Assembly: GCA_913056455.1 (NCBI GenBank)
Contig: CAJXMJ010000002.1
Span: 599,665 to 663,664, forward strand
Source of the DNA: an uncultured Fodinibius sp.
GTDB taxonomy: Bacteria > Bacteroidota > Rhodothermia > Balneolales > Balneolaceae
Length of the DNA: 64,000 bases
Direction: 5' to 3'
Each line of letters begins with the position of its first letter. Within the stretch, counting starts at the first letter, position 1. The position numbers and the translations under genes are program-made. Below are positions 16,998 through 20,211 of the stretch, piece by piece. A model generated the notes under the pieces. That model worked only from the letters and a program-made list of their open reading frames with translations. It was not told where the DNA came from and did no database searches.

Positions 16998-17118
16998 CCA
17001 TAACCGTATAACCGGCGCAAGTATTGATGTTGAAATAGCAACTAACGGAAGAAGATGCGTAAAACCAAGAGGAGCAAAGAATTGGCGAGGCCTGTCCGCG
17101 TTAATGCCTTGGTTAGCC
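16998..17118 (-). repeat. attC-like structured repeat R1 (more degenerate copy)
   Basis: CCATAAC box, arm GTATAACCGGCG, then GGCGAGG + CCTGTCCGCGTTAATGCC, spacer TTG and GTTAGCC box 7 nt before the doc stop codon. Confidence 0.55.
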
Positions 17119-17125
17119 GTACTTA

Positions 17126-17518
17126 CTATTTTTCTATAGCATTCTCTTTTAGATGTTTGGTAACTTCCTCTTTGGAAATGTCTTTTGACAGAAAGTCTAA
17201 GACCAAGTCTGCAAGTTCCAGATCATAAGATTCCTCAACTTCATATCCATTGAGATACAAAAAAGTCAAGGCAGAGGCTAAGGCCGTTCGCTTATTTCCA
17301 TCGACGAATGGATGCCGGATCGTTAAACAAATGATGTAGCTGGCCGCCATTTCGAATAGGTCATTGAGATACTCTCCATCAAAACTTGCTTTAGAAGCAT
17401 CCGCGCAAGCTTGGACGTCTTGTTCTTCTCGTATACCTGGGTCGCCACCTGCTTTTTGAATCTCTTGCTCATGGATGAATAAAATGTCTTCCATAGTTAG
17501 AAAGGAAGGCTCTTTCAT
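17126..17518 (-). CDS. doc: Doc (death-on-curing) Fic-family toxin
   Basis: HPFVDGNKRTA matches the Doc/Fic motif HxFx(D/N)GNKR; 130 aa; overlaps the upstream antitoxin gene by 1 nt. Confidence 0.85.
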   Translation of the reverse strand: MKEPSFLTMEDILFIHEQEIQKAGGDPGIREEQDVQACADASKASFDGEYLNDLFEMAASYIICLTIRHPFVDGNKRTALASALTFLYLNGYEVEESYDLELADLVLDFLSKDISKEEVTKHLKENAIEK

Positions 17519-17724
17519 TATTCACCCAGTTTATCTAAGGATTTACGATGCTTCTTGCTGACTTCTTGATAAGCAGACTTTGCATCAACTTTTTTAATCA
17601 AAAGTCCTTCATCTTGTGGGATGATTTCAACTTGGTCATCATCTTCTACCTTCAACAGCTTAAGCAGGGCTTTTTCGAGTAAGACACCACGACTGTTACC
17701 GATTTTTTGAAGTTTCTTAATCAT
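17518..17724 (-). CDS. AbrB/MazE/SpoVT-type antitoxin
   Basis: 68 aa with KIGNSRGVLLEKALL swapped-hairpin motif, immediately upstream of doc. Confidence 0.75.
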   Translation of the reverse strand: MIKKLQKIGNSRGVLLEKALLKLLKVEDDDQVEIIPQDEGLLIKKVDAKSAYQEVSKKHRKSLDKLGE

Positions 17725-17814
17725 AATATTGTTGCTTTATGTTCTTACTATGTTATTAACATAAGAATACGAAATAAAAAGCAAAAAAGTATATAAGAAG
17801 GGAATATTTAATAC

Positions 17815-17939
17815 GGCTAACGACCTGGCGCATATGATGCGCACGACAAAATGTTGAGTTGATAAATAATGAACGAGAATTTAAAAAGCCAAAAACTAGC
17901 AAGACCAGGCGAGGTGCGTCCCCTAAATGCGGGTTATAT
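17815..17939 (-). repeat. attC-like structured repeat R2
   Basis: GGCTAAC box, arm GCGCATATGATGCGCAC, then GGCGAG + GTGCGTCCCCTAAATGCG and GTTATAT box. The loop is very similar to that of R4. Confidence 0.55.
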
Positions 17940-17954
17940 TTTAAACAGTTTTTG

Positions 17955-18167
17955 TTAGTTACCCCTGCCTGCTTCAACGCCTTGCTGGAATGCTTCGGAA
18001 AGAGCTGCCATATCAATAAATACAATCCAAACTACGAGTAGAACTACACTGGTAATAATAATTTTGGATTGATGCTTTTTAAACTTTTTGAAAAAGCTCA
18101 TCCCAAATAGGGCTATACCACCGAAAAGACTTAGATCTACGAGAAGACCACCTATAAATTCTAACAT
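17955..18167 (-). CDS. 70-aa two-TM protein (hypothetical cassette ORF)
   Basis: ATG start and two hydrophobic helices; flanked by repeats R2 and R3. Confidence 0.45.
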   Translation of the reverse strand: MLEFIGGLLVDLSLFGGIALFGMSFFKKFKKHQSKIIITSVVLLVVWIVFIDMAALSEAFQQGVEAGRGN

Positions 18168-18195
18168 GATGAAGTATTTAATTTAAAGTTTAAAA

Positions 18196-18327
18196 ATATA
18201 ACGACATTGCACATAAGGGGCGTGCAAAATGACGCCGAATTTGCTTAAAAATGTACTACGGAAACTGACCAAATTGAAACCGGAAGCCAACGGCGAGGCA
18301 CGTCCCACTTAATGCGCGGGGTATAGA
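18196..18327 (-). repeat. attC-like structured repeat R3
   Basis: ATATAAC box, spacer GACATT, arm GCACATAAGGGGCGTGC, then GGCGAG + GCACGTCCCACTTAATGCGC, spacer GGG and GTATAGA box 3 nt before the next stop codon. Confidence 0.6.
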
Positions 18328-18330
18328 ACA

Positions 18331-18696
18331 TTAATTCCAGCGCCCAAATAGCTCAAGCCCTATACCAGTATTTAATAGATTAAAAATCAAAAGGATTGCT
18401 ATCAGTAAACAGGGCACCCAAAGTAGGTAAGCCACTTGCGTTCGGAAATGTTTAGTTGCAAAAAAAGTAATTACAAATGCTATTAATGCATGGGCAAAAC
18501 CAACAAAATTTAGGTGCTTTATATTATCAGACATGCCTAATGCTACAAGTGCTAAAAAAACAAGGATAGCTTTAGCAATTTGTTTTGTTTTTTCTTCTTT
18601 GACAGTAAAAAGCATCCCCACGATAAGAGCTATAAGCGAAACACTTATTGCCGACACAGAGAACCATATGAAATTATTATAAATGAAATCTGACAT
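18331..18696 (-). CDS. 121-aa four-TM protein (hypothetical cassette ORF)
   Basis: The ATG lies 3 nt from repeat R4 and the stop 3 nt from repeat R3; four hydrophobic helices. Confidence 0.5.
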   Translation of the reverse strand: MSDFIYNNFIWFSVSAISVSLIALIVGMLFTVKEEKTKQIAKAILVFLALVALGMSDNIKHLNFVGFAHALIAFVITFFATKHFRTQVAYLLWVPCLLIAILLIFNLLNTGIGLELFGRWN

Positions 18697-18699
18697 GTT

Positions 18700-18820
18700 C
18701 TATAACGATATTGCGCATAACCGGCGTGCAATATAATGTTGATTAAATAAATAATGACGGAAAGCTAAAAAGCCAAAATCTGGCAAGTGATGGCGAGGCA
18801 CGTCCGCGTTAATGCGCAGG
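18700..18820 (-). repeat. attC-like structured repeat R4, apparently separated from its outer GTTAGGC box by the IS
   Basis: CTATAAC box, spacer GATATT, arm GCGCATAACCGGCGTGC, then GGCGAG + GCACGTCCGCGTTAATGCGC and AGG. The arms give 17 bp of pairing with three bulged bases in the right arm. Confidence 0.6.
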
Positions 18821-18889
18821 ATCTTTCCAAAAAGGAAGTCCTCACTTAGATTAGAGAGTATCAACCCTAACTAATCCAAGGAGGACTCC

Positions 18890-19944
18890 ATGACCTATGT
18901 AGGAATAGATCTTCACGCTAATAATATGGTAATTGTAGCAATTAACAGCAACGGAGAAGTGATCCGGGAGGCCAAGTTGCCGACTTCCCAGCGAGCGTTG
19001 GAAGATTTTTTTAATACATTTGATGGGCCCATCAAGGCCGTAGTCGAATGCACTAGTAACTGGTATTGGTTGTCGGACTGGTGTCGAGCCAATGGCGTAG
19101 ATCTGAGGCTGGCCCACGCGAAGATGGTCAAGGCCATCAGCTATGCGAAAGTAAAGACGGATACTGTGGATGCGAAAACCCTGGCGGAACTACTCAGCGC
19201 GGACCTTATACCGGAGGCCTACCAGGTGCAACACGACCGACGAGAGTTGCGGGAGCTGACCCACGGACGCCTCCGGATGGTCCAATGGCGGGGCAAATTG
19301 CAGTCCGCGTTGTGGGGACAAGCCATCAAATACAACGTGCAGATCAGTGGAAATCAGTGGCGCCAGCTGAACCAATTACAACAATGGCTTGGCTCACAGT
19401 TGCCACCAGCCGCAAACCTGCAGGCCCGGCTGTTAATTGAGCAAATGAGCCAGTTGCAGTCCCACATCCATCGGATAGAAGAAGAAATCGAGCGACAAGT
19501 TCCCTTCGGAGAAGTGGCCGAGCGGCTCATGGCTGTGCCGGGGCTTGGAAAGGTAGGTGCCTGGACAATCCTGGCAGAGATCGGGGACATCACCCGATTC
19601 CCCAGTGCCAAGCAATTTACCAGTTATTGTCGGCTGGTACCAGGGGCCAAAGACAGCGGCGGATCCCATCGCCATAAGTCAGGAAACAAGGATGGGAACC
19701 GGTACTTACGAGCAGCCTTTGGCCAAGCGGCCGTCTCTGCTTATACCCATTACAAAGTGGTAAAGAAATTTTATCGCAAGATTAAGCGTCGAAGTGGTCG
19801 GCCCGAGCCGTGGTCGCTAAGGAGTTGGCCAAAGGCGTCTGGCATATGCTGACGAAAGACCAGGAGTATAAAGGATTTAAGGGGCAGCCAGTAAGGGCTG
19901 CTTCCCAAACCTGCTGGCCCCAACCGATAAGCCCGAACGCCTAA
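18890..19944 (+). pseudogene. IS110-family (DEDD) transposase with a frame disruption near 19795-19805
   Basis: YVGIDLH N-terminus and AVPGLGKVGAWTILAEIGDITRF (Transposase_20-like). The tracked ORF ends at 19852 in ...GRPEPWSLRSWPKASGIC, while the frame starting at 19801 reads ARAVVAKELAKGVWHMLTKDQEYKGF... to a stop at 19942-19944, which is the expected IS110 C-terminus. Confidence 0.8.
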
Positions 19945-20201
19945 GAGGGACTTTGAGCCCGTGCGCGGGATTGGGACATCGGTTGGCTGGCCGGTTAAAG
20001 ATCTGGGATAGTGGCATTGTGAATGCTACAGTCTCTGTCCATTGATGGAGAATAAGCCCGAAAAGGGGTTTGGATGCCGGCAGGTAATCCGAACGTGATC
20101 AACGATACCGGTTGCCAGCGATAGGTTTGAACCTAGGATTTATTGAAATGCTGTAGCTAGATGTAGGTGAGGACTGTCTGCTTGACATTTTCCTTTTTAA
20201 A
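19945..20201 (+). ncRNA. Candidate bridge/seek RNA region in the non-coding right end of the IS (hypothesis)
   Basis: About 257 nt are non-coding after the transposase versus about 69 nt before it. Local hairpins are visible, e.g. GTTTGGAT (20068-20075)/ATCCGAAC (20087-20094). Confidence 0.3.
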
Positions 20202-20204
20202 GGG

Positions 20205-20211
20205 GTTAGGC
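20205..20211 (-). repeat. Displaced outer core box (GTTAGGC) of repeat R4
   Basis: A perfect GTTRRRY heptamer preceded by GGG, 4 nt before the stop codon of the next gene. This is the same position as the GTTA-type boxes of R1-R3. Confidence 0.4.

Follow-up and report, generated by a model that had tools for sequence, protein, structure and literature searches.

The 64-kb stretch of DNA from an uncultured Fodinibius sp. analysed here (the window) very probably carries, between 16417 and 21215 on its minus strand, an integron cassette array of the sedentary chromosomal type, which has kept its attI site and has no integrase gene (intI) of its own. Such loci are called CALINs, clusters of attC sites without an integron integrase, and loss of intI is among their published origins (Cury et al. 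2016, PMC4889954). With at least two attC sites on one strand and no intI nearby, the locus is a CALIN; the distance rule applied was no intI gene within 4 kb and no intI pseudogene within 10 kb. An original prediction had described attC-like repeats between tightly packed minus-strand open reading frames (ORFs) as an integrase-less, CALIN-type array. Our analysis showed that the repeats are real, and that this reading is supported by the linkage of intI to the same repeats elsewhere, by their structure and by the variable content of the locus. The description of cassettes and attC sites stood, while the attI site beside purM, the attC-specific nature of an insertion sequence (IS) in the array and the probable complete integron elsewhere in the genome had been missed.

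Four attC-like repeats in the window

Four copies of an element of about 125–137 nucleotides (nt), R1 to R4, were found in the window, all on the plus strand, each between minus-strand ORFs and all within 1.9 kb of non-IS sequence. They are located at 16983–17118 (R1, or attC1), 17815–17939 (R2, attC2), 18196–18327 (R3, attC3) and 18700–18820 (R4, attC4). The motif GGCGAGGNNNGTCC is present in four copies, where 0.39 would be expected in the window. A covariance model built from the family's own copies scored R4 at 113.8, R3 at 111.2, R2 at 97.8 and R1 at 82.6 bits (E from 1e-29 to 8e-21), and the next-best match in the 64 kb reached 11.8 bits.

When R3 and R4 were folded as single-stranded DNA, the minimum free energy (MFE) structure was a 17-bp stem of 6+3+3+5 bp with three one-base bulges, all on the 3′ arm of the plus strand. 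This reproduced the stem and the three unpaired bases proposed originally for R4 and the same pairing in R3; the bulged bases, read from the loop to the R box, were found to be T, C and A, not the G, G and T that the original alignment implied. The compensatory changes named among R4, R3 and R2 were also correct (AAC/GTT to AAG/CTT, CGG/CCG to GGG/CCC, and CGTGC/GCACG to CGCAC/GTGCG). Of 24 family pairs, 21 form in R3. R1 and R2, which had been expected to pair less well, form 18 and 15, placing them in the worst 2–7% of 110 family members, and their MFE structures do not adopt the family stem. The folding z-scores of single copies are weak (−0.5 to −1.6) because of the long AT-rich loops, and on structure alone they give no verdict.

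The four sites differ in their state of preservation. R4 has an R′ box (CTATAAC, 18700–18706), the spacer GATATT, the 17-bp L stem with its three bulges, and the loop, and its R″ box (GTTAGGC) has been displaced to 20205–20211 on the plus strand, cut off from the rest of the repeat by the IS. Joining 18820 to 20205 restores GCGCAGG|GTTAGGCC, in agreement with the family consensus GCGCNGGGTTAGG; the insertion runs from 18821 to 20204, not to 20201 as first delimited. In R3 the stem is well formed and the R″ box is degenerate (GGTATAG for GTTA...). R2 keeps both boxes and is eroded by mid-stem substitutions and a 2-nt deletion. R1 likewise keeps both boxes (one being AGGTAAC) and has an 8-nt insertion in its 5′ arm and mismatched inner-helix arms; it begins at 16983 and not at 16998, where it had been placed before. 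The ORFs end or begin 3–28 nt from the boxes, in line with the original description.

The repeats belong to a family shared across Balneolaceae

A pattern scan covering one genome per species returned over 116 stretches, of which almost all came from Balneolaceae (Fodinibius, Aliifodinibius, Gracilimonas, Rhodohalobacter and Balneola), with Longimonas halophila in addition. An nhmmer profile search of 8-kb blocks then counted 305 copies, distributed over 114 loci at a median spacing of 880 bp and at a maximum of 11 per 8 kb. None of the 114 loci mixes strands. In 142 of 176 inter-repeat intervals the longest ORF lies opposite the strand that reads GGCGAGG, that is, on the predicted top strand, and in 33 it lies on the GGCGAGG strand itself. 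A single copy was present in 44 of 113 blocks, and many of the related loci end at contig edges.

The structure of the family was counted with a 24-pair model on 110 aligned copies that are mutually less than 90% identical. Over all pairs and copies, 89.5% of cells are paired. Double-sided changes numbered 259, compared with 118±13 in column shuffles (none of 500 as high) and with 10–68 when the partners were slid. Inner-helix pairs switch from GC to AU and from CG to UA and are broken in 3–11 of the 110 copies. The ends of the family read nnYTAAC ... GTTA(G/T)(G/A)n; their TAAC/GTTA pairs form in 103–105 of the 110 copies, and three outer positions covary. On the 3′ arm of the GGCGAGG strand the bulges follow the order A, 3 bp, C (replaced by a 1×1 mismatch in certain subfamilies), 3 bp, T, with no exception to the apical T in any of the 110 copies. 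An undamaged copy in locus L053 gave by MFE the entire succession of R box, spacer, L stem and terminal loop. These boxes and bulges match the published bottom strand of attC sites, which carries an R′ box RYYYAAC and an R″ box GTTRRRY and whose arm facing AAC has two or three extrahelical bases, at positions 16, 20 and 24; 6 bp separate the first from the last of them, the last is a conserved T, and VCR2 (133 bp) has three (PMC5027507).

Linkage to integron integrases

No tyrosine recombinase or IntI homologue was found by tblastn in the 64-kb window, with IntI1 or with Balneolaceae IntI as queries (the latter at E≤10), as the original prediction had stated. This leaves 21 kb on one side of the array and 42 kb on the other free of intI within the window. 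The IntI1 query served purely as a tblastn probe.

In other loci of the same repeat family the situation is different. The search with IntI1 identified full-length homologues of 45–49% identity in L007, L054, L078, L097, L084 and L110, plus one truncated homologue. For L007, L097, L084 and L110 the TIGR02249 "integron integrase" profile was covered entirely, with scores of 432–449 bits (cut-off 265). In these six loci and in L145/L144, the array lies upstream of intI and diverges from it, and the GGCGAGG strand is the coding strand of intI. Further copies and an intI gene, which the original prediction had suggested seeking elsewhere, are thus both present, the latter beside the array in seven loci. 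The window has the same polarity, with GGCGAGG on the plus strand and the cassette ORFs on the minus strand. Because of this, the plus strand is the bottom strand, as had been proposed. A database search showed that NCBI already names many proteins "integron integrase" in Fodinibius, Halalkalibaculum and Balneola, though no paper on integrons in Balneolaceae was found in the literature searched.

These results bear on whether the repeats might instead be elements of the repetitive extragenic palindromic (REP) or miniature inverted-repeat transposable element (MITE) kind, or terminator-like elements, spread by transposition or acting as RNA structures. Like REP and MITE sequences, the repeats are short, palindromic, intergenic, multi-copy and numerous across Balneolaceae genomes, and the many single-copy blocks and weak z-scores noted above would suit such elements. 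Unlike them, they keep one orientation in each array, with no mixed locus among 114, lie at cassette-sized spacing, stand in a fixed geometry to intI in seven loci, have the boxes and bulges of attC sites, and bound cassettes common to several genera. The original prediction had set scatter of the REP or MITE type against its own reading, and no such scatter was seen. Rfam gave no relevant match to the region at E≤10, to the whole window at the gathering score, or to 12 related loci; a terminator scan stayed at background, and there is no T-run terminator signature at the repeats. We regard this explanation as scarcely credible.

Two further loci carry truncated or distant recombinase genes. 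In L082 (1331–2221) an intI breaks off at about 214 residues, where it is joined to unrelated sequence, and an attC lies downstream of it. In L086 (5497–6444) there is a distant recombinase, 32% identical to IntI1 and below the TIGR02249 cut-off, whose 5′ end is overlapped by an attC copy. From their sequences, both resemble integron platforms that have decayed or are atypical.

An attI site at the purM junction

The array is headed by a block on the minus strand (21068–21215) whose last bases are ...TATGTATAAGACTAG|GTTA; the crossover point falls between G21071 and T21070. The block lies 18 nt after the stop codon of purM (21234–22238, minus strand; Pfam AIRS/AIRS_C), a conserved chromosomal flank which abuts it where intI would be expected. 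Positions 21067–21200 of the window are 89.6% identical to the intI-proximal attI of L145/L144, the closest attI found, and the block is 74–79% identical to the intI–attI intergenic regions of L054, L078 and L007. All the attI regions compared end in TATGTATAAGnnTAG|GTTA, sharing the crossover TAG|GTTA, with unrelated sequence beyond it in each locus. Since the block is homologous to the intI–attI intergenic region of complete integrons and shares their GTTA end, it is an attI site. At the purM junction intI and its proximal ~65 nt are missing. Compared with a complete integron, the locus possesses the attI at the head of the array and lacks the adjacent intI. In genomes that carry intI, purM is not beside it.

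We also considered whether the locus belongs to a normal complete integron whose intI lies just outside or was split off by an assembly or rearrangement artefact. Draft assemblies do often break integrons into an apparent CALIN plus an In0 (PMC9024848), and many of the related loci are located at contig edges. The window, however, is contiguous for 64 kb and has no IntI-like sequence within 21 kb on one side and 42 kb on the other, and the attI–purM junction (18 nt apart) is conserved in L119, L120 and L121 and, in diverged form, in L141. An explanation of this kind is highly improbable.

An intI elsewhere in the genome would agree with the main reading, and a complete integron does exist in the same metagenome sample as contigs identical to the window. 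JGI sample 3300000927 yielded two contigs with full (100%) identity to the window, L117 and L118, and also L145, whose IntI homologue (P0011) shares 88% identity with the IntI of L054. Together with L144, its longer twin, L145 represents a complete integron in which intI and attI accompany attC sites of the same family (E 4e-31). On this evidence the organism of the window probably has a complete integron elsewhere in its genome, and an integrase acting in trans on the purM platform is plausible on the same sequence comparisons.

Cassette content differs among relatives beyond attI

A metagenome scan with PurM gave 25 loci, and synteny upstream of purM was kept in all relatives. Seven of them, with PurM 85–97% identical, have 1–8 attC sites directly downstream of purM, oriented as in the window. 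None of these seven has intI within 10 kb of purM by tblastn, and none has any of the cassette ORFs of the window. In the distant relatives (PurM 72–81%) there is no array, and purM is followed by homologues of the window genes at 5728–6468 or 2789–3148.

The attI block after purM is conserved in L119, L120 and L121 (PurM 90–97% identical), and in L141 it survives in diverged form. In L119, identity to the window is 95.4% over 10.9 kb, with the homology stopping at 21068 (the A in GTTA). L120 and L121 match the window at 98.6% over 6.9 kb; past GTTA they have nothing in common with it except the attC repeats. The comparison from the purM side that the original prediction had proposed thus revealed wholly different cassette content among close relatives with conserved flanks. 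In the pair L123 and L125 the attI-proximal cassettes differ and the distal one, with a 236-amino-acid (aa) ORF, is shared. On the order of the sequences, this polarity is that expected from insertion at attI.

We also observed that about 10.9–21.2 kb of the window forms a variable island relative to the relatives. L123, L125 and L138 lack the PD40 gene, a 195-aa membrane ORF, an NmrA-like ORF and further genes, and the attC array fills only the purM-near half of the island.

Recombination at the locus: present or past

We propose the following model for the locus. The array consists of an attI site and five cassettes, each of which formerly ended in an attC of ~135 nt. On the single-stranded plus (bottom) strand each attC would fold into a hairpin with an R box (nnYTAAC paired to GTTAGGn), an unpaired spacer, an L stem of 17 bp interrupted by two or three extrahelical bases opposite AAC, and a conserved terminal loop of ~65 nt. 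IntI would recognise the folded bottom strand and cut AA|C, so that cassettes would be excised by attC × attC recombination and inserted at the G|TT of attI. The integrase would now be supplied in trans, probably by a complete integron like that of P0011 elsewhere in the same genome. Transcription of the cassettes may come from purM read-through or from a promoter within attI, and the toxin-antitoxin cassette of the array (see below) would stabilise it. In the strain of the window the array would be largely frozen, because every attC carries a lesion.

Several points weigh against the reading of the locus as an integron array, or against its being served by an integrase at present. Every attC site in the window is damaged, R1 and R2 by erosion, R3 by its mutated R″ box and R4 by the IS, and given these lesions the strain's array may have lost its capacity to recombine. 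No attC is recognisable after the last cassette, in the 430-nt non-coding gap at 15988–16416. The central unpaired spacer of the family is asymmetric, with 6 nt (GACATT) on the 5′ arm and 2–3 nt (GG or GGG) on the 3′ arm, compared with the usual 5–6 nt per arm, and the first extrahelical base is A, where G is usual. The attC sites were scored by a covariance model built from the family itself and not by the standard attC model of IntegronFinder. A scan for sigma-70 promoters stayed at background (18 found, 15 expected), the scan being probably unsuited to this phylum. The complete integron is tied to the window by a shared sample and not by one assembled genome. Finally, we infer recombination by IntI, and activity at the locus, from the breaks in homology at the G|TT of attI, and the break at GTTA could also come from homologous exchange of whole arrays.

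The damage would suit a rival reading, that of an inert fossil. An integrase would have assembled the array in the distant past, the array would since have become fixed chromosomal DNA, and the relatives would differ by homologous exchange or by deletion and not by IntI acting at attI. The loss of the terminal attC and the absence of intI in cis from all seven relatives would agree with this as well. However, L120 and L121, with their flanks of 98.6% identity, differ from the window from the very first base past the attI crossover, and the sharing of distal with differing attI-proximal cassettes in L123 and L125 is the pattern left by insertion at attI. Moreover, the attI block has been kept after purM in L119, L120 and L121, with only the diverged trace in L141, and a cognate-looking IntI with an attI of 89.6% identity is present in the same sample. 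We consider the fossil account rather doubtful, though a serious one.

A more far-reaching account is also conceivable. It may be that in this Balneolaceae clade a second, intI-less attI platform at the 3′ end of purM has been inherited across species (PurM 86–97% identical) and is still gaining and losing cassettes through the IntI of a separate complete integron. One IntI would then service several attI sites, an attI alone would be a heritable site of gene capture, and the attC family would support its own RNA-guided parasite of the IS1111 type. We put this forward tentatively, as a possibility that falls somewhat short of an even chance.

An attC-specific insertion sequence in R4

The sequence that splits R4 is an IS of the IS110/IS1111 family on the plus strand (18821–20204, with an ambiguity of 2–3 nt of G at the insertion ends). 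Its transposase ORF (18890–19852) matched Pfam PF01548 and PF02371 and the NCBIfam model NF033542 for IS110-family RNA-guided transposases (200.8 bits). The GC content of the IS is 51–55%, while that of the cassettes is 33–40%. The transposase is frameshifted near 19800 (19795–19852), ending as ...RRSGRPEPWSLRS* after 320 aa, compared with ...RRSGRPVARAVVAKELAKGVWHML... in the 353-aa protein of L032, and from this the present copy is probably inactive.

The IS inserts between the L″ arm and the R″ box of attC, at the same point and in the same orientation every time. Its junctions in the window, ...TTAATGCGCNGG|ATCTTTCC on the left and TTTTTAAAGGG|GTTA on the right, recur in at least 13 and at least 18 other loci, respectively. 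Of 13 left junctions, 11 read ...GG|ATCTTTCC and 2 read ...TG|ATCTTT; 15 of 18 right junctions read AA(A/G)G(G/T)|GTTA. This insertion habit independently marks the R1–R4 family as attC-like targets.

The non-coding region 3′ of the transposase gene, about 260–350 nt long, has been conserved in four copies that are otherwise diverged, and compensatory changes occur in a hairpin within it. One of its segments, GTGCGC(G/T)GGATT, corresponds to the left flank of the target joined to the left end of the IS, the target-like part being GTGCGCGGGATT; in the L032 copy the variable position is T, which agrees with its own target GCGCTGG. The region also holds TTAAAGATCT, which resembles a right-end/left-end junction. 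We regard this part of the window (~19945–20204, with the segment GTGCGCGGGAT) as a candidate seekRNA.

ISs of the IS1111-attC group (ISPst6, ISKpn4 and ISPa25) target attC sites and encode a seekRNA downstream of the transposase gene (PMC11187229). The window IS is similar to them in its DEDD transposase of the IS110 family, in the long non-coding region downstream of that gene, in its subterminal inverted repeats, in its fixed position and orientation at one end of attC, and in the short non-coding matches to the target flank and the IS ends. Unlike them, it is found in a different host phylum and in a different attC family, and its transposase is frameshifted; the likeness is one of sequence features. 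With its conserved 3′ non-coding region, this attC-specific IS carries the IS1111-attC and seekRNA theme into another phylum.

The cassettes

Read along the minus strand, the array runs from attI through cassette 1 with R4 (split by the IS), cassette 2 with R3, cassette 3 with R2, cassette 4 with R1, to cassette 5. Over the 17 kb from 5150 to 22238 every substantial ORF is on the minus strand; because this whole region is minus-strand coding, the co-orientation of the cassettes is not special in itself. No function could be assigned by PADLOC, NCBIfam or Pfam to four of the six cassette ORFs.

Cassette 1, which extends from 21070 down to 18706 with the IS included, has an ORF of 277 aa without a family match (20216–21049). 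It starts 20 nt past the attI crossover and stops 4 nt before the GTTAGGC box; the 292-aa version given originally would cross the attI crossover. Cassette 2 (18202–18705) encodes a hydrophobic protein of 121 aa (18331–18696) and cassette 3 (17821–18201) another of 70 aa (17955–18167), neither of which matched a family.

Cassette 4 (16989–17820) carries a toxin-antitoxin pair (17126–17724), composed of an antitoxin (17518–17724) and a Doc toxin (17126–17518), with matches to TIGR01550 (77.9 bits), to doc_partner (38.3 bits) and to Pfam Fic. The same cassette, bounded by attC sites, was found at 87–89% DNA identity in Fodinibius halophilus, Gracilimonas tropica and Aliifodinibius salipaludis. 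The 90 nt upstream of the antitoxin (17725–17814) contain a near-perfect palindrome, TTCTTACTATGTTATTAACATAAGAA, and no sigma-70-type promoter was called there. From its sequence and position the palindrome looks like a candidate operator, fitting a self-regulated toxin-antitoxin cassette with its own promoter.

Cassette 5, the last one, has an ORF of 180 aa with a signal-peptide-like N-terminus (16417–16959). Homologues with 56–67% aa identity are attC-bounded in L053 and L107, two arrays of one Fodinibius metagenome-assembled genome. In the gap that follows (15988–16416) we noted only box-like fragments, ACCTAAT (16271–16277) and GTTAGTT (16416–16422), which are not significant.

Comparison with known integron arrays

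Gammaproteobacteria are the bacteria best known for integrons. Within the Bacteroidetes/Chlorobi group, reports of complete integrons had been limited to Chlorobi, Ignavibacteriae and Salinibacter ruber (PMC9024848). The array of the window belongs to a known kind of element with a textbook mechanism, in a taxon that is poorly covered for integrons. Our results indicate that halophilic Balneolaceae (the five genera listed above), together with Longimonas, have in common one well-defined attC family of ~135 nt, with cognate integrases, multiple arrays per genome and cassettes that cross genera.

As in other CALINs, two or more attC sites share a strand, there is no intI in the vicinity and most of the cassettes have no known function. 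It differs from typical CALINs in retaining an attI at the head of the array, a feature normally unassessed because attI is not known for non-clinical integrons. It also differs in that an intI-less platform is found at the same purM junction in several related species with different cassettes in each. This makes the locus a natural CALIN with an origin readable from its sequence, in which attI was kept and intI deleted at a fixed purM junction. Between strains 95–99% identical, cassette content differs at the crossover. Given such cassette differences at a retained attI, the servicing of CALINs in trans is directly testable in this cultivable group.

The family also resembles the Vibrio cholerae repeat (VCR) sites of the superintegron, a sedentary chromosomal integron with long homogeneous attC sites (PMC5027507). 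The two families share an attC length of ~131–137 nt, a sequence conserved over its whole length within a lineage and three extrahelical bases spaced 4 nt apart and a conserved apical T, as well as toxin-antitoxin cassettes and mostly ORFan cassettes. However, the window attC sequence is unrelated to VCR, with its own invariant GGCGAGG...GTCC and loop motifs; its family has A and not G as the first bulge and an asymmetric central spacer (6 versus 2–3 nt). Unlike the Vibrio superintegron, the array of the window is short, has no intI and resides in Balneolaceae, of the FCB (Fibrobacteres–Chlorobi–Bacteroidetes) group.

Other conserved sequences

A conserved block of about 100 nt, whose end reads ...GACAAACCGCGAAGGCCGGCGGGCAAAC, lies directly against the R′ crossover (AAC|TAAC) in at least 12 different attC sites and, in L083, in one attI. 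It occurs in L006, L007, L022, L026, L043, L054, L072, L083, L085, L095 and L116, has no Rfam match and is absent from the window. Judged from its sequence context, the block would be either a very common cassette start or another crossover-site-specific element. In other genomes a flank GGCCGGCGGGCAAAC is recurrent; we considered it as the end of a group IIC-attC intron and rejected this, since Rfam finds no intron there.

Outside the array, the plus strand of the window at 14652–14756 resembles only the terminal loop of the attC family (11.8 bits, E ~0.7). This segment has no stems or boxes and has the 18-mer GGAAAGCTAAAAAGCCAA in common with R4. On sequence resemblance, it may be chance similarity in AT-rich sequence or else the remains of an older cassette boundary lying past the PD40 gene.

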